A DNA stretch of 64,000 bases from an uncultured Myxococcales bacterium (GTDB lineage: Bacteria > Myxococcota_A > Polyangia > Fen-1088). The stretch covers positions 293 through 64,292 of the forward strand of contig CAZYFU010000001.1 in assembly GCA_964647025.1 (NCBI GenBank), read 5' to 3'. A program made the position numbers and the translations under genes. This document shows positions 8,148 to 45,817 of the stretch, piece after piece (the first letter of the stretch is position 1; each line of letters opens with the position of its first letter). The notes under the pieces were generated by a model. It had not been told where the DNA came from and did no database searches. It saw only the letters and a list, made by a program, of their open reading frames with translations.

Positions 8148-8201
8148 CGAGCCCGACTCGAGGCCTGCGACCATGAGTCGCGCACGCTATAGTCCCAGGC
8201 C

Positions 8202-9806: not shown

Positions 9807-9856
9807 TCCAACCGCGTTCAGGACGAAGGTGGGGAGACATTGATGTCTCCCCTGCC

Positions 9857-10984
9857 CTACCCGTTCTGGACTTTGCGGGCCGGGAACTCCATCGGCGGCA
9901 AGAAGGTGTCGTAGAAGAAGGCGCAATCGCGGCGGATCTGCTCCTCCGTGAGGCCGTACTTCTCCAGGTTGTACTTGTGCTCGGACTCGTACTTGCGCTG
10001 CTTCTCGCCGAGCTTCGCCACGGTCTCGCGCAACTTGGGGGTCATCTCGTGCCCGAGGAACGCGCACATCTCATCCATCAGGCCCTCGAAGTCCGCCATC
10101 ATGCGGTCGTAGCGGACGATGAACACGCGCTTCTTGTCGATCCTGCCGCTGGTCCAATCGTCGTGGAACCGCCGCAGCAGCGTGATCCAGGCCTGGTACA
10201 TGCGGTCCAGCCATCGCTTGCGGATCGGCTCGGGCAGCGACCAGAACCCGAACGCCTTGTCAAGCACGCCCAGCATGAGGCTGTTCGCGCTGGGAATGAT
10301 CGACAGCGGATCCCGGGCCATGTAGAGGACCTGCGCTTCGGGGCACCTATCGAGGAACTGTGGAAGCCGAATCGCGAGTGAGAACAGCTTCGCGATGTTT
10401 CGGTCTGCCTTGTGCAGAACCAGACTGCGCCGCCACAGCTTGTCGAGCCAGGCCAGATCCCGCTTCGTCGTGTCGCGCAGCTTGGGGTCGACCAACGGCA
10501 GGCGGTCCTGCTCGTCGAACGACAAGAAGAAGCCGTAGAGGAACAGACCATCGAGGTGGCGAAACAGCACGGCCACGTCGTCGGTCTCCACCGATGTGAG
10601 GCTGGTGTCGTGCGCCTTGGTGGCGTGAAACTTGGCCGGGCTGAACTTCTCGAGAAGCGGCAGGAACGGCTTGAACAGCTTCTGGATGATGAGCGACGGA
10701 TAGAGCATGAGGAACAGCTCCATGCCCGAGCCGAAGCCCTCGTCTGCCAGAAACCGCTGCAGGAACGTCGTGCCCGTGCGTGGATTCCCCACGAGGATGA
10801 TGGGGCGATTCGCGCGAACCTTGCGCAAGCTCGGGAACAACAAGTTGTCGAGCAGCATGCCGATACCAACCACCACGCGAACCACGCCAAAGACGATGGC
10901 GATGAAGATTGGCACGACCTTGACCCCGAACGTTCGGCGCAATACACCGTAGACGAGGCCCATCCTCGAAAGAATGCTGTCCAT
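9857..10984 (-). CDS. PAPS-dependent sulfotransferase, membrane-anchored
   Basis: N-terminal TM helix. 5'-PSB motif PRTGTTF and 3'-PB motif RDPLSIIPS are present. 375 aa. Confidence 0.8.
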   Translation of the reverse strand: MDSILSRMGLVYGVLRRTFGVKVVPIFIAIVFGVVRVVVGIGMLLDNLLFPSLRKVRANRPIILVGNPRTGTTFLQRFLADEGFGSGMELFLMLYPSLIIQKLFKPFLPLLEKFSPAKFHATKAHDTSLTSVETDDVAVLFRHLDGLFLYGFFLSFDEQDRLPLVDPKLRDTTKRDLAWLDKLWRRSLVLHKADRNIAKLFSLAIRLPQFLDRCPEAQVLYMARDPLSIIPSANSLMLGVLDKAFGFWSLPEPIRKRWLDRMYQAWITLLRRFHDDWTSGRIDKKRVFIVRYDRMMADFEGLMDEMCAFLGHEMTPKLRETVAKLGEKQRKYESEHKYNLEKYGLTEEQIRRDCAFFYDTFLPPMEFPARKVQNG

Positions 10985-11010
10985 AGCGAGCTCCTGACTT
11001 GTGCGCTGAC

Positions 11011-11985
11011 TTATGCGCCTTGGGCGCGGAACTGGTTCTCGAACGACAGCGCGAAGCCGTCTAGCTCCGCGCTGGGAAGATGGTTGATCCCCGCCGCGGT
11101 CTTGCGGCCGCCCCCCGTCGGAAAACGCCTGCAGAATTCCTCGGCCGATACCTTCGCGTCGCTCGGCACGCGAATGGAAATCAAGTAGCCGCCCTCTTTC
11201 TTCGGCGACACGATGGCGACTGCGCTGCCCTTGTGGGCCTTGGCCAGGTCATTGGCCAAGGTCCCGCTCGCGCGTCTGGCCCAAGCGGCGTCGGGCAGCA
11301 AGAACAGAATTGCACCGTCGACTCTTCGCAACGGCTCGAGCCTGCGTGCCAGCTCCATGTCCTCGTGGAAACCGTCGGCCAGACGGCGGAAGGTAGGCGA
11401 CGCAGCCACGAAGTCCAGCGGATTCGGGTACGGCAGCACCTCACGCGCGAGGTCGGCCGGCGGCACGTGCAGGTCCGCGATGCTCTCGCCGTAGGCGTTG
11501 TAGTTCACCGCCAACCCCAGCTCGCGCAACGACTCGGTGTCCGCATCGCCGAGGCCCGCCTCCTTGGCGGCGGCCCGCCCCTCGTCGGTCAGGCTGTCGC
11601 CGAACGCGCCGGCGGCGGCCCAGGCGCGAAAACGGCCGCCAAGGTGGCCATCGACGATGAGGCTCGTACACAACTTGGGGTTGGGATCGATGTGGATCTC
11701 CAGGTTGCCGTCTCGAGGAATCTCGCCGGCGAAGTGGTGATCGAAGTAGCGGACGCTGGCGCCGGTACCGAGCACCGCCAACAATCCCGCGCGATTGGTG
11801 TCGAGCGAGACATCGAGCACTGTGCACACGTCCCCCGCGCTGGCGCTGACCCTTGCGAGCAAGGCGATGTCGCGCTTCACGCCGGTGACGAGGACGTCCT
11901 CTCCGCCAGGCCCCGCGGCCAGCCGCAGCTGCTGCAAGGCGCACAGCCCGTCGGCGTCACCGTTGAACGCGTAGATACGCTTCAT
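11011..11985 (-). CDS. DHH/DHHA1-family phosphoesterase (NrnA-like; putative 3'-phosphoadenosine-5'-phosphate phosphatase)
   Basis: DHH motifs present: NGDADG, YFDHH, and a GGG-containing DHHA1-like C-terminus. Its stop overlaps the cysNC start by 4 bp. Confidence 0.72.
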
Positions 11986-13922
11986 GGCTCGAGGATTCCG
12001 TGCTCTCGCAGGTAGGCCACGATGGTGTCGGCCGCGGATTCTGGTGTGGTGGTCGTGGTGTCGAGCCAGATCTCGGGCTTCTCCGGGAACTCGTAGGGAG
12101 AATCGATTCCGGTGAAGTTCTTCAGGTCTCCACGTCGGGCCTTCTTGTAAAGCCCCTTCGGGTCGCGCTCCTCGGCCACGTTGATGGGCGTGTCGACGAA
12201 CACCTCGATGAACTCTCCTTCGGCCAGCAGTCCACGCGCCATTGCCCTCTCGGCCCGGAACGGTGAGATGAACGCGGTGCTGACGATGAGGCCGGCGTCG
12301 ACCATCAGCTTGGCAACTTCGGCGATGCGGCGGATGTTCTCCACGCGGTCGGCGTCGGTGAAGCCAAGGTTCTTGTTGAGGCCGTGGCGAACGTTGTCCC
12401 CGTCGAGGAGGTAGGTGTGGCGTCCCAGGCTATGCAGCTTCTTGTCGACCAGGTTGGCGATGGTCGACTTGCCCGCGCCCGAGAGGCCCGTGAACCACAT
12501 CACGCATGGCTTCTGCCCCTTCATCGAGGAGCGCGCGGCCTTGTTCACGTCGATGGCTTGCCACTGGACGTTGCTGGCCCGGCGAAGCGCGAAGTGCAGC
12601 ATACCCGCGCCGACGGTGTCGTTGGTGATGCGGTCGATCAGGATGAAGCCGCCGGTGTCGCGGTTGACCTGGTAGGGGTCGAAGGCGATGGGCCGGTCGA
12701 GCTCGAGATTGCACACGCCGATCTCATTCAGCTCGAGCTTGGCGGCCGGCATCTTCTGTAGGGTGTTGACGTTGATGCGACACTTGAGCGGCGCCACCGT
12801 GCCGGTGACGGTCTTGGTGCCGATCTTCATGAAATAGCTGCGCCCGGGCAGAAGCGGCGCCTCGTTCATCCACACCACGGTGGCCTCGAACTGATCCGCG
12901 ATCTCCGCTGGCTCGTCCGCCGCCACGATCAAGTCGCCCCGCGAGATGTCGATCTCGTCGGCGATGGTGATGGTGACCGACTGTCCCGCCACCGCCTCGT
13001 CCAGCTCGCCGTCGAAGGTCACGATGCGGGTCACCGTGCTCGTGCGCCCGGAGGGCTGGACGCGAATCGGCTGGCCCTTGCGAATGCGGCCACCCACGAT
13101 GGTGCCGGTGAAGCCGCGGAAATCCAGGTGCGGCCGGTTCACCCACTGCACCGGGAAGCGCAGCGGCTGCTCGCGCACGCGGGTCTCATCGACCTCCACC
13201 GTGTTGAGCAACTCCATCAACGTGGGGCCCGTGTACCACGTCATGGTCTTCGAACGGTCGATGATGTTGTCGCCCTTGATCGCCGAGATCGGAATGCAGT
13301 GGATGTCCTCGAGCCCGAGCTCCTTGGCAAAGGCCCGGTAGTCCGCCTCGATCTTCGAGAAGGTCTCCTGCGAATAGTCGACGAGGTCCATCTTGTTCAC
13401 CACGACCACCACGTGGTGAATGCCGAGCAACCGCACCAGGAAGCTGTGCCGCTTGGTCTGGGTGAGGACGCCCTTGCGCGCGTCGATGAGGATCGCGCTC
13501 AGATCGGCGGTCGACGCGCCGGTGACCATGTTGCGCGTGTACTGCTCGTGGCCGGGTGTGTCTGCCACGATGAAGTTGCGCGTCTCGGTCGAGAAGAATC
13601 GGTAGGCGACGTCGATGGTGATGCCCTGCTCGCGCTCGGCGGAGAGGCCGTCGAGCAACAAAGCGTAGTCGATCTCGCCTTGCCGCGTGCCGACCTTCTT
13701 CGAGTCGGCCTCGAGCACCGCCAGTTGATCCTCGAACAGCGACTTCGAATCGTAGAGCAGGCGGCCAATCAACGTGCTCTTGCCATCATCGACGCTGCCG
13801 CAGGTGTTGAAGCGCAGAAGGCTCTTGGCCACGCGCAAGCGAATGCCTGCGTCGGCCACTTCGACGCCCGGCGCGGCCTGTGGCCCCGTGGTGGCGGCGG
13901 TCGGTCTGTTCTCGTGGCTCAT
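11982..13922 (-). CDS. cysNC: bifunctional sulfate adenylyltransferase subunit 1 / adenylylsulfate kinase (CysN-CysC fusion, NodQ-like)
   Basis: 646 aa. GTPase G1-G4 motifs ([18 protein letters not shown]) in the N-terminal part. APS kinase P-loop GLSGAGKST in the C-terminal roughly 200 aa. Confidence 0.9.
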
Positions 13923-14854
13923 CAGAAATACCCTTCCTGCTTCTTGGCTTCCATCGACGAAGGCTGATCGTGATCGATCACGCGGCCTTCCCGTTCGGAC
14001 GTGCGCGCCGCCGCGATCTCGTGGATGACCTCGGCCAGCGTCTCGGCGTTCGACTCCACCGCGCCGGTAAGCGGATAGCAGCCAAGCGTACGGAACCGAA
14101 CCTTCTTCATCATCGGCGTCTCACCGGGCCGCAGCGGCATTCGTTCGTCGTCGACCATGATGAGCGCGCCGTCCCGCTCCACCACCGGACGGACCTTGCT
14201 GTAGTAGAGCGGCACGATGGGGACCTTTTCGAGGTAGAGATACTGCCAGATGTCGAGCTCGGTCCAGTTCGACAGGGGGAACACGCGGATCGATTCGCCG
14301 CGCTGCTTGCGCGCGTTGTACAGGCGCCACAGCTCGGGGCGCTGGTTCTTCGGATCCCAGCGGTGCAGCGAGGTGCGGAAGGAGAATACGCGCTCCTTCG
14401 CCCTGGACTTTTCCTCGTCCCTGCGGGCACCGCCGAAGGCCGCGTCGAAGCCGTACTTGTCGAGCGCCTGCTTGAGGCCCTGCGTCTTCCAGATGTCGGT
14501 GTGGACCGCCGAGCCGTGGGTGAACGGGTTGATGTTCTTCTCCACCGCCTCGGGATTCGTGTAGACCAGCAGCTCCATCCCGGATTCCTTGGCCATGCGC
14601 TCGCGCATCACGTACATGTCGCGGAACTTCCAGGTCGTGTCCACGTGCAGGAGGGGAAACGGCGGGACTGCCGGGTAGAAGGCCTTGCGGGCCAGGTGCA
14701 GCATGACCGAGCTGTCTTTCCCGATCGAGTAGAGCATCACGGGCTTCTCAGCCTCGGCGATGACCTCGCGGATGATGTGGATACTCTCGGCTTCGAGGCG
14801 CTGGAGATGGCTGAGTGTGCTCATAGGTGGCTCGATGGTGAAATTCTCTACCAC
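13922..14854 (-). CDS. cysD: sulfate adenylyltransferase subunit 2
   Basis: 310 aa. PAPS-reductase-like fold with the SIGKDS PP-loop motif. Strong CysD conservation throughout. Confidence 0.9.
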
Positions 14855-14887
14855 ACAAATCGGACCATGACTGTCGGAGATGTGGTG

Positions 14888-15697
14888 CTAACCACGCTCG
14901 ATGTAGTTCGTGGTGAAGTAGTCGTCCTTGGTATCGGGCGCGAAGTTCATCTTGGTCGACTCGAACACAGAACGGCGGCCGTTCTGCTTGTTGATCATCT
15001 CCATGCGCATGGTGCGGTAACGCTTGTTCTTCGCGTCGAGCAGCTTCACGTCCTTCGTGACCAGCTCCTTCAGAACCTTGCCATCGGGCGCATAGAAGAG
15101 CCCACGCATCACGACGTACTTGGTCTTGCTGACCCAGTAAGTCTTCTTCGAGTATCCGTCGCTGGCAGCCACTTCCTTGTTCTTGGGAAGAACATCGACG
15201 ACGTAGCAGGACTCCCCGCCAACCGTCTCGTCCTTGCCGACGCCGTAGGTGAAGTCGTCGAGCGCCGGGATGTTCAGGTCGGCATACGAGAACTCGCTGC
15301 CCATGAAGGCCTGCGAACCCTGCGAGCTCAGGATCCGCCTCGTCTTGCGTAGGGCCGGCATGAATATCCACATGTCGTCGGCCTTGCTCTCGTAGTCGAA
15401 GATGAGGATGCCGGTCCCCTTCACGTCGGCGGGCGACAAGAAGCGAAAGACGCGCTTCTCGGTCTTGCCGCCATCGAAGAGCTTGGTAGCCGACGCGATC
15501 TCGCGCTCGCGCACCTGGCCCTTGTCGTCGAAGATGCTCATCTTGATGGTCGACTCGGAGCCGTCGAGCTTACGCGTGACCGTGACCTTCTCCATGATGT
15601 CGCGGCCGGACTCACCGGCGCGCGCCAGGTCGGCGCCGAACAAACTCGAACCGCAGACCGCGGCGAACATCGACAGCAGGAATCCTCGCTTCGTCAT
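14888..15697 (-). CDS. LolA-like outer-membrane lipoprotein-sorting family protein (periplasmic)
   Basis: Signal peptide, about 250 aa mature. The family resemblance is to LolA_like/DUF1329-type proteins that accompany SSD/MMPL-type lipid exporters. Confidence 0.6.
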   Translation of the reverse strand: MTKRGFLLSMFAAVCGSSLFGADLARAGESGRDIMEKVTVTRKLDGSESTIKMSIFDDKGQVREREIASATKLFDGGKTEKRVFRFLSPADVKGTGILIFDYESKADDMWIFMPALRKTRRILSSQGSQAFMGSEFSYADLNIPALDDFTYGVGKDETVGGESCYVVDVLPKNKEVAASDGYSKKTYWVSKTKYVVMRGLFYAPDGKVLKELVTKDVKLLDAKNKRYRTMRMEMINKQNGRRSVFESTKMNFAPDTKDDYFTTNYIERG

Positions 15698-15709
15698 GTG
15701 CTTCCTTCC

Positions 15710-17206
15710 TCAGAACGTCGAGCGAAGCTCGACGTAACCTGCGCTCAGTTGTTGATCGACCAGACCGAAAAGCGTGCCGCTGGGGCCGGCCAGGACCTCA
15801 CCACCGACGTACGCGATCATGGAATCCGACAGCCTGTAGCCGACCTTCGGCGCCGCCATCCATTCCTTGGTCGAGAAGTTGTACATGCCCAGGGCCGACA
15901 GAGACAGGGTATCGTGCGCGGTCAACCACTCGACGCGCGCCGTGGCCAAGTGCTGGATCTTCTCGGTCTGCGAGAACAGCATCTGATTCGTCTTGCGAAG
16001 GTTCGCGTCCACGGCGCCGCCCGCGGTCCGCGAGTCGACCTGATCCGGCTTGGTCAGCATGGCGGTCGTCAGGCTGGTGTCGGCCGGACCTTTCTCCTTG
16101 GCCCAGTCGAAGGTATAGCGACCGAGGTATTGCACGATGAGGCTCACCGAGCCGAAGTTGTGGTCGCCGCCGATGGCGTACTGCAAGTCGGGTTTGGGCG
16201 CGTGCATCTGGCTTTGGTAGTCGTACGGCCTGCGGTACGCCACCTCGCCGCGAAGCGCGAGCAGGTCACCAATCGCGGTGGAGAAGTCGAAGCCCACCAC
16301 CTGCTGCTTGTATGCGGTCCGGGCGATGATGACGCTCGGGTTGGTTTCGCTGATGGTCACGCTGGAACGGGTCAACCCCGGCATGGGGGCGTATCCGTGC
16401 AGATAGGAGACCGACATCTCGACCGACGGCAGCTCCAGGTGGACACGTCCGGCCAGAAGGCCCTTGTCCAGCTCGGGCTTCGGATACTTCGGGTCGCCAT
16501 AGCTGACGTACTGCGGGAGATTGACGGGAGGCAGCTCGTTCGCGACATAGGACGGAAGCCACACGCCCTCGATGCGCACGGGCGACAGCCGCAGGACCGC
16601 GCGCGCGCCCACGTTGCCCATCCGACGGTCGTCCTCGATGGGCGAGCGCATGCGGAAGTTGACCGGGGTCAGGTTGTTGGTGGGATTGAGCAAGTCCGCC
16701 CGACCCCAGACGATAATCTGCTTGCCGAGGCGAAGATCCAGCGGCCCCAGGTACGTATTCACGTACGCCTCGCGCACGTCGACGGTCGTGCTCTGCTGGG
16801 ACTCGCCGAGCATGCCGTAGCGCAGGCGAACCTCCGCAAACGCATCGCCGAGGTCGTCCTTCTTCGCCCTGGCAATCAGAGCCAGCTCGCCGTATCCGGC
16901 CTTCAGGTTCGCCTGATCGCCGCCAGGGACCTTTCCCACGAAGACATCGCCACGGGTGTAACCGCTGATCTGCAGAGAGGACGAGCCGCCCGTCGGAGCC
17001 GCGGTCTCCGATGGAGTCTGGCTGGCGGAGACGCTCTGCTCGAAAAGGCCGCTTCCTGACTCGGACGAGGCCGGCTCGGCCTGGGCGCCGCCGTCGGAGC
17101 CCCCCGCCTCTGGCGAAGCGGTGGGCGTCTCGGCACGGGCCCCGCCCGCGAAGACGACCGACCCGCAACCGAGCAGGAGTGCCAGCTTCTTCGATCCGCT
17201 AAACAT
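15710..17206 (-). CDS. DUF1302-like outer-membrane beta-barrel protein
   Basis: The internal Met MFSGSKKLALLLGCGSVVFAGGARA is a signal peptide. Block LRLGKQIIVWGRADLLNPTN resembles the DUF1302 signature. Beta-strand-rich. Start 17206 was calculated from the ORF-track frame. Confidence 0.55.
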   Translation of the reverse strand: MFSGSKKLALLLGCGSVVFAGGARAETPTASPEAGGSDGGAQAEPASSESGSGLFEQSVSASQTPSETAAPTGGSSSLQISGYTRGDVFVGKVPGGDQANLKAGYGELALIARAKKDDLGDAFAEVRLRYGMLGESQQSTTVDVREAYVNTYLGPLDLRLGKQIIVWGRADLLNPTNNLTPVNFRMRSPIEDDRRMGNVGARAVLRLSPVRIEGVWLPSYVANELPPVNLPQYVSYGDPKYPKPELDKGLLAGRVHLELPSVEMSVSYLHGYAPMPGLTRSSVTISETNPSVIIARTAYKQQVVGFDFSTAIGDLLALRGEVAYRRPYDYQSQMHAPKPDLQYAIGGDHNFGSVSLIVQYLGRYTFDWAKEKGPADTSLTTAMLTKPDQVDSRTAGGAVDANLRKTNQMLFSQTEKIQHLATARVEWLTAHDTLSLSALGMYNFSTKEWMAAPKVGYRLSDSMIAYVGGEVLAGPSGTLFGLVDQQLSAGYVELRSTF

Positions 17207-18275
17207 GGTCACCGGGGTTCCTTTCCGTCCACTCGCCGGTGGCCAACACGATCGAGAAGCCCGCAGCCGCGCTGCCAAGGGCGATTCTGTCGCCCGGTCG
17301 GACGCTGCGCTCTTCGAGCAACTGATGGTAGGTCACGCCGACGCTCGCGCTGGCCGTGTTCCCGTACTTCGAGTGGGTGTACACGCCTTTCACCGGATCC
17401 ACGCCGGTGTCTTGCAGAATCTTGCGGACCATGATCTCGCTCGGTTGGTGGAAGACGTAGTGGTCGATGTCGCTCGGCTTGAGATTGATGGCGGCCAAGC
17501 GCTCCTTGATCCAAGGCGGAATCATCTTAGCCAAACGCATGAGCTCGACAGAAGACGAAAAAAGTGTTCCGTCGATAGGAACCTGGCACAGGTCCCAATG
17601 ATCCGGCGCCGTGATGGTATCGATGCTGGTGAGCCGAATGCCGCCGCCCGGGAACGGCCGCTTCCGCAACAGCACGCAGGTTGCTGCATTACCGACGGTC
17701 AGAGCGGCGGACTTCATGTGCAGGTCGCGCACCTTCTGGATGTCGTAGCTGAGGAAATGCCGGGATAGCTCCGACGTGCACACCAGGGCGGCCCGGTAGC
17801 TCGGCCGCATGTTGAGGTAGGCCGTAGCGACCTGGATCGCCTCCAGGTGCCCGACGCAGGCAGAGGTCACGTCGAACGCATGGGTCCGACGCAATCCCAG
17901 CTTGGCCGCGACCTCCATGGCCGTCGCCGGCTCGAAGTACTGGCGGGCAATGCCGCCGCAGATCACCAGGTCGACCTCTTCCAGGGAGGCGTCGTTTCGG
18001 CGCAAGCACTCCTTGGCGGCGGCCACCGCGAAGTCGGCCACGCGACCGCTGTCGTCGACCTCCAGGTAGCGCTGCTGGGTCTTGCACAAGCTGAAGATGT
18101 GCTCGATGGCAGACGCCAACCGCGCGAAGTCCTTGTCCGTGCCTTTGAACTTGGCCCGGACACGGCGAATGGTTTCGGCGTTATCGACTAGGGCGCCTGG
18201 GAAACAGACGCCCGGTTTGGAAAGATACAGCTCGGGTAGACTCACCAGCAAACTCCCTGGTTCGACATCATCCAA
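17199..18275 (-). CDS. 3-oxoacyl-ACP synthase III (KAS III/FabH-like)
   Basis: TTG start. Catalytic triad contexts are present: SACVG (Cys), VFHQPS (His), GNTASAS (Asn). 358 aa. Confidence 0.8.
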   Translation of the reverse strand: MDDVEPGSLLVSLPELYLSKPGVCFPGALVDNAETIRRVRAKFKGTDKDFARLASAIEHIFSLCKTQQRYLEVDDSGRVADFAVAAAKECLRRNDASLEEVDLVICGGIARQYFEPATAMEVAAKLGLRRTHAFDVTSACVGHLEAIQVATAYLNMRPSYRAALVCTSELSRHFLSYDIQKVRDLHMKSAALTVGNAATCVLLRKRPFPGGGIRLTSIDTITAPDHWDLCQVPIDGTLFSSSVELMRLAKMIPPWIKERLAAINLKPSDIDHYVFHQPSEIMVRKILQDTGVDPVKGVYTHSKYGNTASASVGVTYHQLLEERSVRPGDRIALGSAAAGFSIVLATGEWTERNPGDHV

Positions 18276-18310
18276 CCCTTTCTAGCCGTTTCAAAGCGCC
18301 AACAACATCG

Positions 18311-19027
18311 TCAGCGATTGTTTTCAAAGAGGGACCGCAGCAAGGGATCGCGAAAATCGCTGCCGGGCGCGAAGTAGCTGCACAGAACGACCTTACGCAC
18401 GCCAAGGTCCTGGTCCGTGCGGTCGACCAGCACCTGGCCGGCCCCGGACACGACCACGGTGCGAACCATGCCAGGCGCGACCTCGTAGATCAACCGGTCA
18501 TGCTTCTCGTACCCGCGCGACTTCAACGCGGCGAACGAATCTGGCAAGCCCTGCATGACCCGTTTTTCCAGACCGGCGTCGATGAGTCCAGCTTTGCGCG
18601 TCTGCTCGAGGTTCTCGCGCACCACCCCAAGCCACCGATCGAGCGAGACGTCGCGCTTGAACTTCATCTGCACGACCCCGCGCTCCGCACCGATTACGGC
18701 ATTGGTGAGCTGATTTGCGAGACCGTCCGAGAACGTCTTTCCGGTCGCCAAGCCGGACAGCTTCGTCTGCGTCGGCTTGTCGATCCGCACCTCGATGGTC
18801 GCCACGTTGATCCTGAGGAAGGTCTTCTGCAGGAGCATATGCATGTACGCATACGCCCCTTGGGCAAGCTCCTTCGACTCCAGCGAGGGAAGATTCGTTT
18901 CGGCCGTCGCGACCAGAGCGCAGCTGGCCAGCAGCCCGGACGCAGCAGCAGCCCAGCGTAGTTTCGTGAGTGACATCGATACTCCCAGTTGCCGATCGTG
19001 AGGTGCGCGGCTCAGGTTCTGCCTCAA
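18311..19027 (-). CDS. secreted hypothetical protein (possible chalcone-isomerase-like fold)
   Basis: Signal peptide (MSLTKLRWAAAASGLLASCALVATA) after a short leader. The start overlaps the upstream gene's stop by 4 bp. The fold assignment is speculative. Confidence 0.45.
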   Translation of the reverse strand: MRQNLSRAPHDRQLGVSMSLTKLRWAAAASGLLASCALVATAETNLPSLESKELAQGAYAYMHMLLQKTFLRINVATIEVRIDKPTQTKLSGLATGKTFSDGLANQLTNAVIGAERGVVQMKFKRDVSLDRWLGVVRENLEQTRKAGLIDAGLEKRVMQGLPDSFAALKSRGYEKHDRLIYEVAPGMVRTVVVSGAGQVLVDRTDQDLGVRKVVLCSYFAPGSDFRDPLLRSLFENNR

Positions 19028-20499
19028 TTTCGATAGAGAACGTCGATGGCCAGGATATGCGATGCCGCGCTGTAACTACCGGCGTTGACCGCCGGCGAGG
19101 GCTGGCCGAGGAAATTGGCGTTGCATTCAGAGGTGCTGGTGTAGGGCGCCTTGCAGGGGCTGCCTGGTACCTGCTGGTAGCCACGGGCGTTCTTCTCGGA
19201 GACATAGACGCTGGGCTGGACTCGCAGGTGGTAGGCCAGGGCCAGCTCCAGCGGGCCGAGGAACATCGAAGCCCCGAGGCCGCCGCCCACTTGGGGACCG
19301 CTCGGAAAATCCACGCTGGCGTAGGCCGGATCCGCAACGGCGGTTTCGTAGTAGCCGCCCGCCCGCAGGGTCAGAAGCGACGGAAGCACGGCATAGTCGC
19401 CGCCCAAGCGCACGGCGATGGTGTCCTTCCAATTCTTGTTGATGTTGATGGTCCCGAGTTCGATGCGGTCGCTCTGGCTCTTGGCCTGCAGACCGCGCGT
19501 ATCGATGGTGAACTTGTTCACACGCGACCAGGTCTGGTACTCGACGTTGAGCTCGAGGTCGAAGAGCTCGCGACTGCCCACGAGGCCTCGGTAACGAACG
19601 CCCGCGCGGAAGAGCATGGGCAGGGGCATGGTGACCTGCACGTCGTTGGCCAGGCTGTTGTTGCGCAGCAGGCTCACGCGCCCGATCTCATCGCCGATGG
19701 GGGTCACGTTCAGGTTGGCGTTGGCGACGATGTTCGCCGGCACCACTTGGCCTGACAGCGCGAACTCGAGGAAGGGGGTTGGCCTCACCCACGTGCCAAG
19801 CACGGCGTTGAACGTGAAGAGCGACGAGCCCCGCATGTCGGCCACGATGTCGTAGCCGCTGGACACGGGATTGGCCGGCTGGGAGAAGACCGTGCCGTCG
19901 ATGACCAACGAGTAGCGCAATCTCGGCATGTGGATCCACTGGAGGCTGGCACCAATCCCGAACACGTCTTGGTAGTTCCAAGCCACGCTGCCCACGTACT
20001 TCAGGAAGATGACCTCGCGACTGACCATCTGGTAGCGTTGCCCACCACCTTCGGGGAAGGCCAGCTTCCCGATGCCAGGAGGCGCATACACGGCCGCGCC
20101 GAAGGTGAAGTCGCGCAGGCCGAGCTTCGACGCGACCCCGAGAAAGGGATCGAGCGCCTGCCAGGGCTGCCCGTTGTTTACGGTATTGAAGGATACGACC
20201 TTGGGCTGGCCGGTGTTCTGGTCGATGTCGCCCCAGTCCTTCGTGGTGTCCCGCGCGTACGAGTATGCGTTGCGAGAGAAGATGTTCCCGAGCTGAAACG
20301 TCGTGCCGGTCGCCTTGGCCAGCCCCGCCGGGTTGATGTCCACCGCGGTCACGTCGTTCGTGGAGGCGACCACCGCCCCGCCCCGCCCGGCCGCTCGCGC
20401 ACCCAGGGTGCCCGAGTAGTAGCCGCCCTCCGCCAGCGCGGGGAGAGCGAAATGAAACACACCCGCGAGGGCGACAGCGCCAACAGCGATCTTCTTCAT
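19024..20499 (-). CDS. FadL/TodX-family outer-membrane hydrophobic-compound channel
   Basis: Signal peptide MKKIAVGAVALAGVFHFALPALA. The N-terminal hatch-domain pattern G..G.agAa......d.....NPAGLA is conserved. About 490 aa, a size consistent with a beta-barrel. Confidence 0.65.
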   Translation of the reverse strand: MKKIAVGAVALAGVFHFALPALAEGGYYSGTLGARAAGRGGAVVASTNDVTAVDINPAGLAKATGTTFQLGNIFSRNAYSYARDTTKDWGDIDQNTGQPKVVSFNTVNNGQPWQALDPFLGVASKLGLRDFTFGAAVYAPPGIGKLAFPEGGGQRYQMVSREVIFLKYVGSVAWNYQDVFGIGASLQWIHMPRLRYSLVIDGTVFSQPANPVSSGYDIVADMRGSSLFTFNAVLGTWVRPTPFLEFALSGQVVPANIVANANLNVTPIGDEIGRVSLLRNNSLANDVQVTMPLPMLFRAGVRYRGLVGSRELFDLELNVEYQTWSRVNKFTIDTRGLQAKSQSDRIELGTININKNWKDTIAVRLGGDYAVLPSLLTLRAGGYYETAVADPAYASVDFPSGPQVGGGLGASMFLGPLELALAYHLRVQPSVYVSEKNARGYQQVPGSPCKAPYTSTSECNANFLGQPSPAVNAGSYSAASHILAIDVLYRN

Positions 20500-20541
20500 G
20501 CGAAAAACCGAGGGCAAAGGGGTGACTCCGATGTCCGGCTG

Positions 20542-21561
20542 CTACGATGGATTCAAGACCACCACGGCAATTGGGGTGGGCACTTGGCACCTCGTGCAGC
20601 GCAAGGCGACCGCCCAGATCCCGTTGCTCTTGGAGAATCCGGTGAACTTGCCGTCTAACGAGGAGCTGGCCGAGGTGAGGTCGGCGCTCTTGACGGGATT
20701 GTCATCGGACTGACTGATCGCCAGCTCGTAGAGTGGCGAAGCCAATCCTGCCACGTCGAGGTCGAGGAACCTCTCCTCCAACTGGCTGACCGTGAGGTCC
20801 GGGTAGAAACCAAGCTGCAGCCTGTCGACGTCGGCAAAGAGAAACTCATTCTGCAGGCCGTCCTTCGTGAGCTTGCTCCAATCGAGCACGTACGGCCCCC
20901 CCGCGGCCACGTCTACTGTGGATGCGGTAAGGTCGGCGGTGAAGTCGAGAATGCTGCAGCTGTCAGTCTGCGCCTTTACCTCAGTGACGCTCGAGCCGTC
21001 GTTTGGTTCAAGAAAAAGCATGGTCCGGCTGCCGCTGCCCAGCTTCGTGCCCCGAGCAAAGAGAAGCATGTAGGTCTTCGTCGACGACACCGTATAGTCG
21101 GTCGTCGGGTTGACCACCGTCGTATCGAGCGAGAACTGCGAAAGCTTGGCGCATGTCGAAGACGCCGTCGTCCTGAACGTACGGGAAATGACCTTCGAGC
21201 TGTCGAGTTGACCGGCGGTGAGCTGCTGTTCGATCTTCGATTCGTCGAGGTTGTTGATCTGCAGGAAGGTCACGCTGTTGATGTCGGAGGACGAGGCATC
21301 GTGACAGAGAAAGTCTTTCGTGATTCCCGTCCAGCAAATGTCCAAGTCGGCTTGCGGCTTGGTCTGAATGCGCGGAATGCTGAGGGCGCTCGTGGCCCTG
21401 TAATTGTTCTGGTCGGTGATGACGATGTTGCCCGTCGAGTCGCTGCTCGTCGCGTTACTGCCACAAGCGGCCGAGAGCAATAGCGAGCCAGCCAACACCG
21501 TCGCCCACCCGCCTCGTCGAGACGAAATCGAGAACCTGCAACCGAGTTTCATGAGGGGCAT
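20542..21561 (-). CDS. lipoprotein, hypothetical (paralog of 24514..25620)
   Basis: Lipobox LLLSAACGS. S/T/N-rich. The C-terminus ALRCTRCQVPTPIAVVVLNPS aligns with the paralog's LALQCGGCRNPSPLYLTIFKPCN. Shared LDWSKLTKDG / LDWGKMTKTS block. Confidence 0.6.
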   Translation of the reverse strand: MPLMKLGCRFSISSRRGGWATVLAGSLLLSAACGSNATSSDSTGNIVITDQNNYRATSALSIPRIQTKPQADLDICWTGITKDFLCHDASSSDINSVTFLQINNLDESKIEQQLTAGQLDSSKVISRTFRTTASSTCAKLSQFSLDTTVVNPTTDYTVSSTKTYMLLFARGTKLGSGSRTMLFLEPNDGSSVTEVKAQTDSCSILDFTADLTASTVDVAAGGPYVLDWSKLTKDGLQNEFLFADVDRLQLGFYPDLTVSQLEERFLDLDVAGLASPLYELAISQSDDNPVKSADLTSASSSLDGKFTGFSKSNGIWAVALRCTRCQVPTPIAVVVLNPS

Positions 21562-21947
21562 TTAAGCTGAAAGCCCCAAACGATTCCAGCGCTAACCGGC
21601 GTCTCCGACGAGATCCAATCCGACGTCGTCCGAAGACACGATCCGGGATCAAAAAAGATCGACTTCCGAAAAGAAAAAATCGCAGAGACCTGCGCGCATG
21701 AAAATACCGGACCGCAGGAAGCTTCTTTCGGAGCAAATGCCGAGGCTGAACAAGGGTGTCAGACTGAATCGTCCGTGAAATCGAAGCCCGTGATCCGCAT
21801 GATGACGTCGTTAGCCATGCGTTGCCGCTTGGCACAGCCGCGAAATATGTCTATCGTTTGCTCCTCGCTTGTATTGTTCCGTCTGCGTGCGCCTTGATGT
21901 CGTTTGAAGAGTGCCCAGCGTTCCCCTTGCCGTAGGAGTCTACTGTC

Positions 21948-22652
21948 GTGCGATTGATCTTTGATCGAGCTGCAACATTGGTCTTGGCCGCCGCGGGTTT
22001 GGTCGGGTGCGGGAGCAATCAATCGGAAAGCTCACATTGGGCCGGGAAGACTTTTCTCCTCGAGTTTCCTGCCAAGCACTGGAACCAACCCTCCAACAAA
22101 AGCGTCGCGCAAGCCGTTGGTGACTTCGTTCCGCAGTTTTTGATCTCCGTCTCCCAATCGGGTGGCAGCGAGAGCGTGACGATCGCCACGGCAGAGAACG
22201 GCGTCCAGGACAAGTCGAACGGCACGCAGCAGACCACGCTGTCGAAATCGAGCTTCCCAGACAGCGAGTTCGTCATCGCGGAGTTCCCCATCAACTTCGA
22301 ACGGACCGACGAGAACACCGGAGAGATCGCCAAGGTTTGCGCGACCATTCGCAACATGACCTTCACGAACATCCTGCCTGGCGAGGACGACACGGCTCGC
22401 ACCGACGGAAAGTTCAAGGCCACGGGAGACATGGGCGCGCTCGCCCCCCTGTTCTTCCTACAGAAGGATCCCACCGCCGAGAGCATCTGCACCATGCTCG
22501 GCGGCGAGCAATACGAAACGCCCTGCGAGACCTGCTCCTTCAACAACAAGCAACAGTGCCTGACAATCGGCGCCATCCAAATCGGCGCAGAGTCGACAAC
22601 CGCATCGGTCGAGCAGCTTTCCTTGAACGATACCGCCGCATCCTGTCTCTAA
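21948..22652 (+). CDS. lipoprotein, hypothetical
   Basis: GTG start with an AGGAG RBS 8 nt upstream. Lipobox LVGCGS. Cys-containing C-terminal half. Confidence 0.55.
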   Translation: MRLIFDRAATLVLAAAGLVGCGSNQSESSHWAGKTFLLEFPAKHWNQPSNKSVAQAVGDFVPQFLISVSQSGGSESVTIATAENGVQDKSNGTQQTTLSKSSFPDSEFVIAEFPINFERTDENTGEIAKVCATIRNMTFTNILPGEDDTARTDGKFKATGDMGALAPLFFLQKDPTAESICTMLGGEQYETPCETCSFNNKQQCLTIGAIQIGAESTTASVEQLSLNDTAASCL

Positions 22653-22712
22653 CGTCAGAGTAAGCCACAGTCACGAAACGTCAGAGCAAGCGACAATCAG
22701 GAGTATACCGCG

Positions 22713-24470
22713 ATGCAACGTATGACAACCGCGCTGGTGATTCTGGGGGGCCTTTGCCTCGGTAGTTATGGCTGCAATCCGACTGGTGACGACCAGGGGG
22801 CAGCTTCGGGAGGAACGAACCAAACCGGGGGAAAGGCCAATGGCGGCTCCTCGGGCAGCGGCGGCAAAGCCGGCGCTGGTGGGTCTTCCACAAATAGCGG
22901 CGGCTCCGCAGGCAGCGGCGGCAAGGCCGGTAGCGGCGGCTCCGCCGGCAGCGGTGGCTCCGCAGGCAACGGCGGCAGCAGCAAAGGTGGAGCGGCAGGC
23001 AGCAGTAGCACCGCAGGCGCGGGCGGCCGAGGTGGAGCTGCGGGCAGCAGTAGCACCGCAGGCACAGGCGGCAGGGGAGGCGCGGCAGGCAGCAGTAGCA
23101 CCGCAGGCGCGGGCGGCCGAGGAGGGGCGGCGGGCAGCAGTAGCACCGCAGGCGCAGGCGGCAGCGCGGGCGGCCCGGGCGGAAACAGCGGCGACTGCAC
23201 CGTCAAGCAGATCTCCGGGACCACCAGCACCGCCATCCAGACGGTTGGGATCGTGACCTGGTCCACCACGCTCTCGAAGGTCAAGACAGCCAAGATCGAC
23301 TTCGGCCTCACCACGTCGTACGGCCAAACCGCGCCGGTGGATCTCACGCAGAAGGACTACCGGACGTTGCTGCTGGGGATGAAGCCGAACAAGACCTACC
23401 ACTACAAGATAACCGCCAGTGACGACTCGAGCAGCTGCTCCAGCGAGGACTACACCATCACCACCGGCGCTCTGATGAGCGGCCTGCCAACCATCAAAGC
23501 CACGACCAAAGACGCGACGAAGCTGGCCGGCGGCTTCCTGATCACCGGCCAATTCGTCCAGTTCTCGTCCGGTAAGGCGCCCGCCTACATCCTCGACGGC
23601 GACAACGAGTTCGTCTGGGCGTTCGCACCCTACACGGCCGACGTGACCTGCGCTCGCATGAACTACGCGGGTACGCACATGTGGCTCAACTCGGCCAACG
23701 TGCCGAATGGCTCCACCCACGTGCACCGCGTGACGATGGACGGCCTCACGAACGAGAACCTGTCCGACAAGTTCACGGGGTTGAACCATTCGCTGACCGT
23801 TCTCCCTGACGAATCGGTGGCGTTCTACGCGTATGGATCGAACAACTGCGACGACATCAAGGAATACAACCCGACCACCAAGACCACGAGGACCATCGTC
23901 AACTCCGGCAAGGCGCAGGGCGGGATCAGCCCCTGCCACGTCAACAACATCCAGTACTCCGAAGAGGACGACACGATCGTGTTCTCGGACCTCGACAGCC
24001 AGGCCGTGGTGAAGGTCAAGCGCAGCGACGGCTCGACCGTGTGGATCGCGAACAGCCCCAAGTCGACCTTCACGGGCGACAGCTGGGCAGGCAGCCAGCA
24101 CGGCGTCCACCTCCTCGATCTCGATCGCTTCCTGGTGTTCAACAACAACAGCAGGATGTCGATGGGCACCATGGGCTCCGCCGGCGGTGACGGCTCGGGC
24201 TCGATCGCCATGGAGTTCACCCTCGACCTGACCGGCAAGAAGATGTCCAGGGTCTGGCAGTACAAGGCGAATCCCGGCATCGACAACGGCGTCATGGGTG
24301 ACCTTCAGCGGCTGCCCAACGGAAACACCATCGTCGGCTACTCGACGAGCGGCATCGTTCACGAGGTGGACTCGAAAGGCACGCTTTTGCAGTCTCTCGA
24401 ATGGCAGAAGCTGACTCAATTTGGCTATATTGAAAAGCGAGCTACGCTCTACGGACCACCCCCGCGCTAG
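22713..24470 (+). CDS. lipoprotein with G/S-rich repeat linker and a large beta-rich C-terminal domain (possible beta-propeller)
   Basis: AGGAG RBS. Lipobox LGSYGC. About 130 aa G/S-rich linker including 4 tandem 15-aa repeats (AAGSSSTAGAGGRGG). The 400-aa C-terminal domain contains an LPNGNT motif. Confidence 0.6.
   Translation: MQRMTTALVILGGLCLGSYGCNPTGDDQGAASGGTNQTGGKANGGSSGSGGKAGAGGSSTNSGGSAGSGGKAGSGGSAGSGGSAGNGGSSKGGAAGSSSTAGAGGRGGAAGSSSTAGTGGRGGAAGSSSTAGAGGRGGAAGSSSTAGAGGSAGGPGGNSGDCTVKQISGTTSTAIQTVGIVTWSTTLSKVKTAKIDFGLTTSYGQTAPVDLTQKDYRTLLLGMKPNKTYHYKITASDDSSSCSSEDYTITTGALMSGLPTIKATTKDATKLAGGFLITGQFVQFSSGKAPAYILDGDNEFVWAFAPYTADVTCARMNYAGTHMWLNSANVPNGSTHVHRVTMDGLTNENLSDKFTGLNHSLTVLPDESVAFYAYGSNNCDDIKEYNPTTKTTRTIVNSGKAQGGISPCHVNNIQYSEEDDTIVFSDLDSQAVVKVKRSDGSTVWIANSPKSTFTGDSWAGSQHGVHLLDLDRFLVFNNNSRMSMGTMGSAGGDGSGSIAMEFTLDLTGKKMSRVWQYKANPGIDNGVMGDLQRLPNGNTIVGYSTSGIVHEVDSKGTLLQSLEWQKLTQFGYIEKRATLYGPPPR
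22991..23170. repeat. in-frame tandem repeat, 4 x 45 bp (encodes AAGSSSTAGAGGRGG x4) inside lipoprotein gene
   Basis: Near-identical 45-bp units are visible directly in the sequence at 22991, 23036, 23081 and 23126. Confidence 0.85.
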
Positions 24471-24513
24471 CAGCAACTGACCGTCTATCACCCATCTCAC
24501 CGGAGGCCTCTGA

Positions 24514-25620
24514 ATGAACCGCAAAGCATCGACGATTGTCGCAGCACTCTTGACCGTTGCCGCGGCTGCCTGTGGCAGCAACGGAAGCAGCGGCGGCGGC
24601 GCTGGCGGCAACGCCAACAATGGAGGCTCCGGTGGAGGCGGTGGAAGTGGTGGAAGTGCAGGAGGTGGGAACGGAGGCAGCGGAGTAACGTGCAGCGGCA
24701 CAACCCTGACGGCCACGGAAGCCAGCAACTTCAAGTTCGAGAGCACCATTTCGCTGCCGCTCACCAAGGTCAAGCCCAACACAGCGCTCGATTTCGACTG
24801 GAGCGAGGCGACGGCCGACCTCCTCGGTCATCCCGTGGACCCCAAGAAGGACCTCAACAGCATCATCGTGATCGAGTGGAAGCTCGACATCAACACTCTG
24901 CAAGACAAGCTCAACTCTGACGAGCTGCAATCGAAGTACATGGTGGGAAACCTGCCCATTCTGTACACGACCGATGGGGCAACGACGTCGGCCAATCTCC
25001 TCAACTTCACCGTCAATGGCGGGCCGATTGGGGTCGATGGCGGCCTCGTTACTGTCGAGACGGTCATGCAGTTCTTCGACCCGAAGGAGCACGATCCTGC
25101 CACGAACACCTTCACGCTCATGGCTGCCACCGGGAAGATCCTCGGACAAGGTACCAAGGCCATCCAGGCCTTCCAGCTCGACCCTGCCTCGGACAACACC
25201 AAGGTGGCCCTGACCAAGGATTCCATCAAGCTCGACTACAAGGCCGACCTGCAGTCCCTGTCGCCGATTGGCATTCCCGCCGGAAAGGCGAACATCAGCT
25301 TGGACTGGGGCAAGATGACCAAGACCTCGATGGGGCAGGACTTCATCGTCACCGACATCACGCGCGTCATCCTGGCCAACTACTCCGAAACGCCGGCAGA
25401 GCTCGAAAAGAAGTTCCTCGACATCGAGCTCATTGCCAAGAAGCTCTACCAGGGCAACATCGAGATCGGCACGAAGGTCGACTTCTCGACCCTGGAAGAC
25501 AGCTCGGGCAACAAGTTCTCCGGCATCGACGGCGATGGCACGTGGCTGCTTGCTCTCCAGTGCGGGGGCTGCCGCAACCCCTCCCCGCTCTACCTGACCA
25601 TCTTCAAGCCCTGCAACTAG
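24514..25620 (+). CDS. lipoprotein, hypothetical (paralog of 20542..21561)
   Basis: GGAGG RBS. Lipobox AAAACGS. G/S/N linker. The C-terminus aligns with the 20542..21561 product. Confidence 0.6.
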   Translation: MNRKASTIVAALLTVAAAACGSNGSSGGGAGGNANNGGSGGGGGSGGSAGGGNGGSGVTCSGTTLTATEASNFKFESTISLPLTKVKPNTALDFDWSEATADLLGHPVDPKKDLNSIIVIEWKLDINTLQDKLNSDELQSKYMVGNLPILYTTDGATTSANLLNFTVNGGPIGVDGGLVTVETVMQFFDPKEHDPATNTFTLMAATGKILGQGTKAIQAFQLDPASDNTKVALTKDSIKLDYKADLQSLSPIGIPAGKANISLDWGKMTKTSMGQDFIVTDITRVILANYSETPAELEKKFLDIELIAKKLYQGNIEIGTKVDFSTLEDSSGNKFSGIDGDGTWLLALQCGGCRNPSPLYLTIFKPCN

Positions 25621-28397: not shown

Positions 28398-28467
28398 GTG
28401 CAGCACATGCAAGTTGTCATGGTTGCCACTCGGGTGGCAAGAAGTAATGGGCTCGATCTGGCTGCGG

Positions 28468-30267: not shown

Positions 30268-31800
<1,533 letters not shown>

Positions 31801-45813: not shown

Positions 45814-45817
45814 GGGG

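Follow-up and report, generated by a model that had tools for sequence, protein, structure and literature searches.

A conserved gene cluster linking sulfate activation, two kinds of sulfotransferase and lipid transport in uncultured Polyangia, with a possible role in sulfation across the envelope

In rhizobia, a CysDN(C)-type supply of 3'-phosphoadenosine-5'-phosphosulfate (PAPS), NodPQ, is reportedly dedicated to a specific sulfotransferase (ST), NodH, whose acceptor is said to be a lipo-chitooligosaccharide made by the Nod enzymes; no KAS III-like condensing enzyme, PAPS-independent aryl sulfotransferase (ASST) or envelope lipid-transport set is reported there. Mycobacterial sulfolipids, namely sulfolipid-1 (SL-1; Stf0, Pks2, PapA1/2 and MmpL8) and S881 (Stf3 and Cyp128), are likewise said to depend on STs of one broad family that act on a lipid, with an MMPL protein as exporter and CysDNC as the source of PAPS. 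Here we describe a cluster of 15 genes and about 20 kb (positions 9857 to ~30063) in a 64,000-nucleotide stretch of DNA, hereafter the window (GC content 65%), from an uncultured Myxococcales bacterium (assembly GCA_964647025.1, contig CAZYFU010000001.1, positions 293 to 64,292 of the forward strand). The cluster has the same pairing of PAPS supply with a specific ST of that broad family, but differs from the mycobacterial systems in lacking a polyketide synthase (PKS), an acyltransferase and a P450, in its different envelope and in having an ASST and outer-membrane parts that those systems are without. An earlier note, made from the letters of this DNA, had proposed that dedicated PAPS synthesis, an ST and a phosphatase for the by-product 3'-phosphoadenosine-5'-phosphate (pAp) are wired here to a KAS III-like enzyme and lipid-trafficking proteins, and our analysis bears this out.

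Two further systems combine a condensing enzyme with an ST. In caprazamycin biosynthesis, as Tang et al. 2013 (pmid 23912167) is summarized in PMC4257720, pyrones made by the type III PKS Cpz6 are sulfated by the PAPS-dependent Cpz8 and then serve as donors for the ASST-type Cpz4. The adp 'sulfation cassette' of Streptomyces davaonensis (AdpPKS, AdpST and AdpP1-3) yields sulfated alkylresorcinols (PMC12135136). Cpz4 is also the one exception in a 2026 review (PMC13426309), according to which it is unknown what donors and acceptors bacterial ASSTs naturally use and what their physiological role is. With the caprazamycin system, as that summary presents it, the locus shares a thiolase-superfamily condensing enzyme, a PAPS-dependent ST and an ASST-type transferase in one cluster, and these three are found together in the window and recur together across phyla. 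The condensing enzymes differ, that of caprazamycin being a pyrone-forming type III PKS and that of the locus a KAS III/OleA-like protein outside the type III PKSs. The locus further differs from the summarized system in its diderm host, in its extracytoplasmic ASST (a lipoprotein or a cargo of the type IX secretion system, T9SS) and in being free of an antibiotic pathway; it adds an HAE3 pump, LolA-like, DUF1302, FadL and chalcone-isomerase (CHI)-fold proteins, and PAPS and pAp-phosphatase genes of its own. The adp cassette likewise keeps a condensing enzyme, an ST and dedicated PAPS-synthesis genes together (in a single operon; PMC12135136), but it uses a type III PKS, belongs to an actinomycete and is without the ASST, the pAp phosphatase and the export machinery, all three of which the locus has.

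Full-text literature searches found no description of the cluster, in agreement with the earlier note, which knew of no system of this composition; each sub-module nevertheless has a described precedent. By analogy with the caprazamycin relay, we suggest that the locus may carry out a two-step sulfation spanning the envelope, a reading that we hold with a little less than even confidence. What we propose as new relative to the precedents is the envelope dimension, that is, a membrane-bound, presumably cytoplasmic ST, an ASST outside the cytoplasm and a lipid export route between them.

The sulfation enzymes and the condensing enzyme

The earlier note had listed nine minus-strand genes; all of them are where it placed them, profile matches assign each to the family that it had named, and a test of GC content at third codon positions gives a single clear coding frame per region, backing the assigned reading frames. 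The ST (375 amino acids (aa), 9857..10984, minus strand) matches Sulfotransfer_3 (PF13469; 4e-18, 66.8 bits against a gathering score of 27) and Sulfotransfer_1 (PF00685; 7e-9, 35.9 bits against 22). It keeps the PAPS-binding residues, the lack of which the note had named as one ground for giving up its proposal. The 5'-phosphosulfate-binding loop G66-N-P68-R69-T-G71-T72-T73-F74, which aligns with the counterpart loop of Stf1, follows the pattern G66-x-P68-R69-x-G71-T72-T73-F74, and this pattern and the 3'-phosphate-binding motif R224-D-P226-x5-S232 are invariant in an alignment of 20 sequences reaching down to 30% identity. The conserved H125 and E133-T-D135-D136 are candidates for the catalytic base, and the hydrophobic N-terminal stretch (residues ~14-52), a putative anchor, fits an association with the membrane. 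The nearest solved relatives are the mycobacterial Stf1 (2zq5) and Stf9 (2z6v), with weak E-values. Some homologues carry an automatic name from the Joint Genome Institute (JGI) after Stf3, a link in name only; no P450 like Cyp128, the partner of Stf3, was found in the window locus or the annotated related loci, and we do not assign the ST to the Stf3 group.

Upstream of the ST gene, and on the same strand, lie the genes for PAPS supply. CysD, the small subunit of sulfate adenylyltransferase (13922..14854), scores 546 bits against NF009214 (cutoff 413). The large subunit is fused to the adenosine-5'-phosphosulfate (APS) kinase as CysN-CysC (11982..13922; APS_kinase 3.5e-68), which scores 1037 bits against NF004035 (cutoff 715) and 253 bits against TIGR00455 (cutoff 139), so that both proteins are assigned at the equivalog level. 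Between cysN-cysC and the ST gene is a gene (11011..11985, minus strand) for a predicted DHH-type pAp phosphatase of 324 aa, which has a weak match to DHHA1 (4e-6). Since neither sequence nor profile searches matched this protein to a solved structure, we used an AlphaFold2 (AF2) prediction (pLDDT 93.6), the best structural match of which is the PAP phosphatase MtPAPP (8a8k; E 1.3e-13, TM 0.61), followed by RecJ, NrnA and Rv2837c. MtPAPP, from Methanothermococcus thermolithotrophicus, is a characterized DHH enzyme that is highly specific for pAp, is encoded beside sulfate-activation genes and has the metal ligands D8, D10, D57, H76, H77 and D127 (PMC10322725). These correspond, with matching spacing, to D10, D12, D58, H83, H84 and D130 of the window protein; in 22 homologues D10, D12, D58, D62, D82-H83-H84, D130 and GGGR291-294 are invariant, and DHH motifs I-IV and the GGG motif of DHHA1 (G291-G-G-R294) are all present. 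Thus, MtPAPP is the best structural match and shares the metal-ligand pattern and the siting by sulfate-activation genes, but the two have only ~13% sequence identity, and the archaeal enzyme is partnered by a PAPS reductase whereas the bacterial one is partnered by an ST. The DHH gene is linked to cysNC and the ST gene in 21 loci, almost always between the two. Fold, motifs and gene position therefore agree with the pAp-recycling phosphoesterase of the earlier note, and the linkage to cysNC and the ST suggests that the modelled protein is specific for pAp.

The condensing enzyme (17199..18275, minus strand; ACP_syn_III_C 2e-19) is a KAS III-like protein of the OleA/PpyS, or head-to-head, type. 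Its closest solved relative is OleA of Xanthomonas campestris (3ROW; 6e-20, 75 bits), slightly ahead of FabH enzymes, and it keeps the Cys-His-Asn triad (C140, H276 and N306). Glu115 aligns with Glu117 of OleA and Glu105 of PpyS, at the position of Phe87 in Escherichia coli FabH, the sequence of which was checked via its known active-site positions only; the window protein has both triad and glutamate, as does every Polyangia-type KAS III homologue. This glutamate is the base of the non-decarboxylative head-to-head condensation in OleA and is essential in PpyS and PyrS, each of which, as a lone KAS III-like enzyme, joins two acyl thioesters into a dialkyl-hydroxypyrone (PMC4578411). Compared with OleA, PpyS and PyrS, the window enzyme has low sequence similarity and is without OleBCD partners. 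As no acyl carrier protein (ACP), reductase or OleBCD genes are found among the annotated open reading frames (ORFs) of the locus, a one-enzyme scaffold is its simplest reading. We rejected the OleABCD olefin pathway, there being no alpha/beta-hydrolase, AMP-ligase-like or reductase genes at the locus.

The same enzyme could also be cast in a scheme where sulfate is a leaving group, with OleA-type condensation, sulfation of a beta-hydroxy intermediate and decarboxylative elimination giving a long-chain olefin or ketone for export by the MMPL system, in the style of CurM and the olefin synthase (OLS). Olefin formation activated by a sulfotransferase is known in the curacin and OLS pathways, and the closeness of the KAS III to OleA and its retained equivalent of Glu117 would suit such a scheme. 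It is nonetheless very improbable, as there is no ketoreductase, thioesterase or OleBCD gene in the locus, the Marinimicrobia version of the cluster (see below) has a different class of KAS III, and the ASST is left unexplained.

The second sulfotransferase, the ASST-type PAPS-independent enzyme (22713..24470, plus strand), matches PF05935 (5.4e-16; 59 bits against a gathering score of 24.2) and PF14269 (5e-9; 36.3 bits against 27), and its best solved relative is 9kf4, titled 'Sulfotransferase' (1.4e-10); no publication associated with PDB 9KF4 and 9KF6 was found. It comprises a lipoprotein-type signal, a Gly/Ser/Ala linker of ~130 aa, an FN3-like domain and a beta-propeller. The active site of the E. 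coli CFT073 enzyme (EcAST), against which we mapped the cluster ASSTs, consists of H252, H356, N358, R374, the sulfated H436 and T501 (PMC13426309). Nearly every ASST of the cluster, the window copy included, has the equivalents of H252, H356, N358 and H436. These enzymes are extracytoplasmic: the window copy has its lipoprotein signal and linker, and a Marinimicrobia copy (locus L079) has the Por_Secre_tail of T9SS cargo. Tandem DNA repeats at 22896-23164 (18 bp x 4.5 and 45 bp x 4) encode the Gly/Ser/Ala linker of the window copy; a Gly/Ser-rich linker also follows the lipobox of h368, and an acidic Pro-rich one that of the metallophosphoesterase, two lipoproteins introduced below.

The ASST operon is headed by a small lipoprotein, h234 (21948..22652, plus strand; canonical lipobox LVGC), which has the same position in L085/L090, L088 and L105, and the ASST gene is followed by that of its partner, the lipoprotein h368 (24514..25620, plus strand). 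This is a paralogue (28% identity, 1e-32) of h339, a new lipoprotein family of 318-339 aa without Pfam or NCBIfam matches, which is encoded by the first gene of the minus-strand operon (20542..21498, or to 21561). Neither contains a known domain, and both share a C-terminal motif, W..AL.C..C..P.P, that includes a CxxC. As the E. coli ASST depends on a dedicated oxidase, DsbL/DsbI (PMC13426309), a redox or chaperone role of h339 and h368 is conceivable by analogy.

Extent and recurrence of the cluster

Ten genes, the nine noted earlier and h339, run head to tail on the minus strand (9857-21561), with h339 in the same gene run 24-42 nt upstream of FadL. The nine had been described as packed with 4-bp overlaps, which overstates the case: a firm 4-bp overlap is seen at one junction only, DHH/cysNC, the overlaps being 1 bp at cysD/cysNC and 8 bp at KAS III/DUF1302. 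At the junction of FadL with the then hypothetical CHI-fold gene, a 4-bp overlap needs a TTG start, and the ATG that gene callers choose leaves a gap of 47 nt; the other minus-strand junctions are gaps of 12-63 nt. This spacing fits a single operon. The limits that the earlier note had set (9857-20517) also proved too narrow, as six more conserved genes belong to the cluster, namely those for h339, h234, the ASST, h368, a metallophosphoesterase and the MMPL exporter. The MMPL gene that it had mentioned, distant from the operon (26037-28394, or to 28514), belongs to the same system by its linkage in related loci. A scan of 9500-29000 for promoter and terminator consensus sequences was uninformative, its counts being equal to those for shuffled sequence.

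The ST has more than 1200 relatives in databases, the closest of which (74-94% identity) are all metagenomic and, where named, come from Polyangia or Myxococcales. At least 479 species-representative genomes have ST relatives. The 80 loci fetched all come from uncultured organisms, as metagenome-assembled genomes or single-cell assemblies; among them are Polyangia/Myxococcota at 60-87% identity and, at ~50-55%, Marinimicrobia (Neomarinimicrobiota), Ignavibacteria and a Chitinispirillaceae bin. For a survey anchored on the ST, we annotated the ORFs of 82 loci (designated by L numbers) with the window proteins and sorted the loci into classes. Class A, the Polyangia type (ST at least 65% identical), keeps three modules in varying orientation: [cysD]-cysNC-DHH-ST, LolA-DUF1302-KAS III and h339-FadL-CHI fold-MMPL. 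The earlier note had asked whether gene order is conserved in relatives, and either the order or the set of genes is kept there: L008, L085/L090 and L087 have the order of the window, L085 matching it across 15 genes, a sigma-54 activator included, and L001, L004, L005, L007, L011 and L020 have the three modules in shuffled form. Fifteen class A loci are 'complete', extending 8 kb or more to either side of the ST; the LolA-like gene is present in 14 of these, FadL in 11 and KAS III in 10, and h339 precedes FadL in 13 class A loci. In several related loci, among them L001 (6976-9015) and L002 (6868-9018), gene calling extends cysNC at its N-terminus (679-716 aa), and cysD was not detected as a gene of its own nearby; it may be fused, degraded or located elsewhere. 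One such extended product has a faint PAPS_reduct match.

Class C, which has a simpler version of the cluster, is of low GC content and mostly from Marinimicrobia. Here the ST gene is divergent from an adjacent ASST gene, followed by a gene for a secreted START-domain protein, often with a second ASST and a leucine-rich repeat (LRR) protein (both with T9SS tails), a DUF1302-homologous barrel, a KAS III and LolA-like/MMPL pairs. An ASST is present in 21 of 23 Marinimicrobia-type loci, and all seven complete ones have both ASST and KAS III. We considered the START-domain protein as a cytoplasmic polyketide cyclase and rejected this because of its signal sequence; it has no sequence similarity to the CHI-fold protein of the window and is retained as a possible functional analogue only. 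In Marinimicrobia L079 (37-5318), and in the equivalent parts of L057, the cluster adjoins beta-oxidation genes (acyl-CoA dehydrogenase, thiolase and FadB-like), which could feed acyl-CoA or 3-oxoacyl-CoA to the KAS III. Across the survey, the KAS III gene lies directly upstream of the ST gene in L018, L039, L045, L051, L052, L060, L067, L068, L073, L077 and L080.

The ASST gene directly follows the ST gene in L004, L009, L011 and L016, and the ASST trio of L105 stands right next to cysD-cysNC-DHH-ST in divergent orientation. In most other class A loci it stands beside MMPL, as in the window, which puts it beyond the 10-kb flank of the ST-anchored loci. A reciprocal scan anchored on the ASST covered 80 metagenome loci, 31 of them of at least 9 kb; in these 31, h368 is adjacent in 25, and MMPL is present in 14, FadL in 12, CHI-fold in 11 and KAS III in 10. 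In 11 of the 31, the ASST or MMPL gene also has beside it the metallophosphoesterase, which in the window is a purple-acid-phosphatase-like lipoprotein encoded upstream of MMPL (28468..30063, minus strand; Metallophos 1.2e-9; probable start MKAVRVV..., with a lipobox). The 5' part of a longer ORF at 28468-31401 is an artefact, as it overlaps the sigma-54 activator gene on the opposite strand.

The arrangement goes far past what chance would give, with ST homologues surrounded by this gene set in dozens of independent contigs. One might still suppose that housekeeping genes of sulfate assimilation, of which cysDN(C) are common examples, have come to lie beside an unrelated lipid-transport operon, and the chance-level promoter and terminator scans would agree with this. 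However, several rearrangements seen in many genomes have not parted the lipid modules from the cysNC-DHH-ST triplet, and the apr, qmo and dsr pathway of the window does not use PAPS, which fits a dedicated purpose for the PAPS made here. We therefore give coincidental adjacency practically no weight.

Envelope transport and the two-step reading

The remaining genes of the minus-strand operon and the MMPL gene, on the same strand, point to transport of a lipid through the envelope. The LolA-like protein (14888..15697) is a secreted, TP_0789-like periplasmic lipid carrier by its profile (PF17131 6.7e-52, with a weak DUF1329 match and an N-terminal signal). The DUF1302-like outer-membrane beta-barrel (15710..17206) exceeds the gathering score of PF06980 with a partial match (1.9e-10), begins with a signal or lipobox sequence and is homologous to the Marinimicrobia barrel that lies beside KAS III. 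The gene at 18311..18976 encodes a secreted protein of 221 aa with a signal or lipobox N-terminus and no Pfam match, the AF2 model of which (pLDDT 86) has as top matches exclusively CHI, CHI-like and plant fatty-acid-binding (FAP) proteins at TM ~0.6, the best being 8dld (E 7.7e-8) and AtFAP3 (4dol). Its gene adjoins FadL or MMPL in related loci, and the modelled fold suggests that it probably binds a hydrophobic ligand in the periplasm. The FadL/TodX-family (FadL/Toluene_X) outer-membrane channel (491 aa, 19024..20499) has a signal peptide and a near full-length match to PF03349 (3.2e-18; 65.9 bits against a gathering score of 29.7). The inner-membrane exporter of the MMPL/HAE3 family of resistance-nodulation-division (RND) pumps (26037..28394, the longest ORF reaching 28514; MMPL 1.4e-44) has twelve hydrophobic segments and, as its best NCBIfam match, HAE3 (TIGR00921; 6.6e-60, below the curated cutoff); orthologues of 75-79% identity directly follow FadL and the CHI-fold gene in L001, L005, L007 and L020.

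A DUF1302 protein, a LolA-superfamily protein and an HAE3 pump together form an envelope transport set for hydrophobic molecules, as in AmeABCD (PMC6394551), and a cofitness cluster of DUF1302, DUF1329, BNR and HAE3 proteins has been proposed to export a cell-wall component (10.1101/072470). The locus has all three of the proteins common to AmeABCD and the cofitness cluster, its HAE3 assignment being the one below cutoff. In contrast to AmeABCD-type sets, which carry a BNR protein and a DUF1329 protein of 450 aa, no BNR/COG4447 beta-propeller, the fourth transporter component, was found among the genes of the locus, and its LolA-like protein is of the short TP_0789-like type. Unlike those sets, too, the locus ties the transport proteins to biosynthesis and sulfation.

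These same families could be taken to point towards conjugation, detoxification or scavenging, with FadL importing exogenous hydrophobic phenolics or sterol-like compounds, the ST sulfating them from PAPS in the manner of phase-II conjugation, the MMPL system expelling the conjugates and the ASST swapping sulfate among external phenolics. FadL-family channels take up hydrophobic compounds, the MMPL protein has weak similarity to the sterol-sensing domain and to BstA and HpnN, and a Bacteroides cluster reportedly couples PAPS synthesis and a pAp phosphatase to a cholesterol sulfotransferase. AmeABCD-type HAE3 systems, for their part, confer monoterpene tolerance (PMC6394551). The proposal, however, leaves idle the best-conserved partner of the ST, the KAS III-like enzyme, and no xenobiotic catabolic or regulatory genes are present in the locus; we regard it as improbable. 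The MMPL matches to HpnN and BstA are far below cutoffs, and a sterol or hopanoid link, suggested by the sterol-sensing match, was set aside, as the annotated ORFs of the window (not all ORFs) include no cyclase or isoprenoid-lipid genes.

The two-step sulfation that we favour starts from observed family identities, catalytic and binding motifs, extracytoplasmic signals, and linkage across genomes and phyla. In this scheme, CysD and CysN-CysC would make PAPS in the cytoplasm, and the OleA/PpyS-type KAS III would condense fatty-acyl thioesters to a hydroxy- or enol-bearing lipid, with a dialkyl-hydroxypyrone or a beta-keto/enol lipid as the candidate product. The membrane-anchored ST would move sulfate from PAPS onto this lipid at the inner membrane, and the DHH-type phosphatase would remove the inhibitory by-product pAp. 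The HAE3/MMPL pump, the LolA-like carrier and the DUF1302-like barrel, possibly helped by the CHI-fold protein, would bring the sulfated lipid to the outer membrane or the surface; the tethered ASST would take the sulfuryl group on its catalytic histidine and pass it to an acceptor beyond the reach of PAPS, and the FadL-type channel may return the spent carrier. The parts of this scheme that we infer are what the lipid is chemically, that the ST acts on what KAS III makes, which way transport runs and that the lipid is the donor in the ASST step. As the ASST is linked to the ST family across phyla, the sulfated lipid would likely be the sulfuryl donor or carrier for extracytoplasmic sulfation. 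The earlier note had envisaged a sulfated lipid as the product: the logic of PAPS supply, ST, KAS III and export supports such a lipid, but given the ASST linkage it may not be the end product.

Several points weigh against this account. All of the evidence comes from metagenome assemblies. The condensing enzyme is KAS III-like and not a type III PKS, and its product is a prediction; the Marinimicrobia KAS III belongs to a separate FabH-like class of 21-27% identity with Ile or Val at the position of Glu117. The hydrophobic N-terminus of the ST does not by itself fix the side of the membrane on which the catalytic domain lies. Among the genes of the locus, no acceptor or acceptor-making genes were identified. 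An ST of class B (L027-L043, L046, L061-L063 and L069; 49-61% identity, GC content at least 0.5) is mostly found alone or with KAS III only, no related genes being present among its annotated neighbours in L034 and L035; this subfamily is outside the system and probably differs in function. In L035, the class B ST gene lies near a phage-baseplate-hub-like (Phage_GPD) gene. Of the 15 complete Polyangia-type loci, only 5 have an ASST no more than 10 kb from the ST, partly an effect of the flank limit, and the ASST family is not confined to the cluster, roughly half of the pairs of ASST and h368 being found elsewhere. Finally, the window ASST has Leu at the position of R374 and Met at that of T501, which could mean a difference in chemistry; the Marinimicrobia ASSTs and the copies of L004 and L006 retain R374.

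These last observations also bear on a strong rival account, in which the pathway ends with the sulfated lipid. This would serve the outer membrane as a structural or signalling component, and the ASST, its partner lipoproteins and the metallophosphoesterase would only remodel it, turn it over or use it secondarily. The same PAPS, ST, KAS III and export evidence serves this account equally, the ST has mycobacterial Stf proteins as its nearest solved relatives and some homologues bear the JGI name after Stf3, an enzyme of lipid sulfation, and the pairing of an ST with an MMPL exporter is the logic of mycobacterial SL-1. The missing R374 and T501 of the window ASST, and the absence of an ASST from some loci, likewise favour it. 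On the other hand, it gives no reason for the association of the ST family, across phyla, with an ASST that has its catalytic histidines intact and is often encoded right beside the ST, or for that of the exporter with a FadL-type channel, of a family for hydrophobic uptake. We judge this account unlikely on balance, though it is to be taken seriously.

Genomic context and implications

The cluster is flanked by a gene for a sigma-54-dependent activator (30268..31800, plus strand; Sigma54_activat 2.4e-68), a possible regulator of uncertain membership that also flanks it in L085 (1-555) and L087 (19266-20681); a search of the divergent promoter region (21562-21947) revealed no -24/-12 consensus for sigma-54. 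On the other side, a secreted protein with a von Willebrand-A domain (8202-9806, plus strand) is encoded convergently with the ST, and a PAP2-family phosphatase lies farther off (6159-6995, minus strand). As neither recurs in related loci, both are probably unrelated neighbours. Long antisense ORFs, among them 8187-10067 and 22671-24782 (both minus strand), were dismissed as artefacts of high GC content, with Arg/Ala-rich translations and the wrong GC content at third codon positions.

Farther along the window (44584-62817) is a dissimilatory sulfur island with genes for QmoC-, QmoB- and QmoA-like proteins, AprA (TIGR02061, 1e-259), an NrfD/DsrP-like protein, DsrO, DsrA, DsrB, DsrL-like and DsrN-like (CobB family) proteins, DsrM, DsrK and a small ORF that is possibly DsrC. 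Quite apart from the cluster, it is noteworthy that a Polyangia-like genome has an apr/qmo/dsr set. As this set of dissimilatory sulfur genes is complete, the host is, on its predicted gene content, a Polyangia-like bacterium with sulfate or sulfite respiration or with a reverse Dsr pathway. The dissimilatory pathway runs via APS and sulfite and has no need of PAPS, and the CysDNC proteins of the cluster thus fit a dedicated purpose.

Our analysis provides a testable candidate for a donor pathway of ASSTs in Gram-negative bacteria. It also suggests a route by which activated sulfate may leave the cytoplasm, with a bearing on sulfated surface polymers and on organic sulfur cycling, and the carriers of the cluster are abundant uncultured lineages, namely Polyangia of soil and peat and marine Marinimicrobia/SAR406. 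The modelled DHH protein would extend a recently described archaeal type of pAp phosphatase to bacteria. The poorly understood DUF1302/LolA-like/HAE3 sets gain a probable defined cargo, and two unannotated families, h339/h368 and the CHI-fold periplasmic protein, gain a functional context. Going further, a recyclable lipid might act as a membrane-crossing carrier of sulfuryl groups in diderms of at least two phyla, being loaded from PAPS, exported by HAE3, LolA-like and DUF1302 proteins, unloaded by the ASST and returned through FadL. We consider this full cycle doubtful. If true, it would be the sulfate counterpart of the polyprenyl-phosphate carriers of sugars, would provide the long-missing natural donor for ASSTs and would explain sulfation where PAPS is absent; such a carrier cycle, if real, would be a new concept for extracytoplasmic sulfation.

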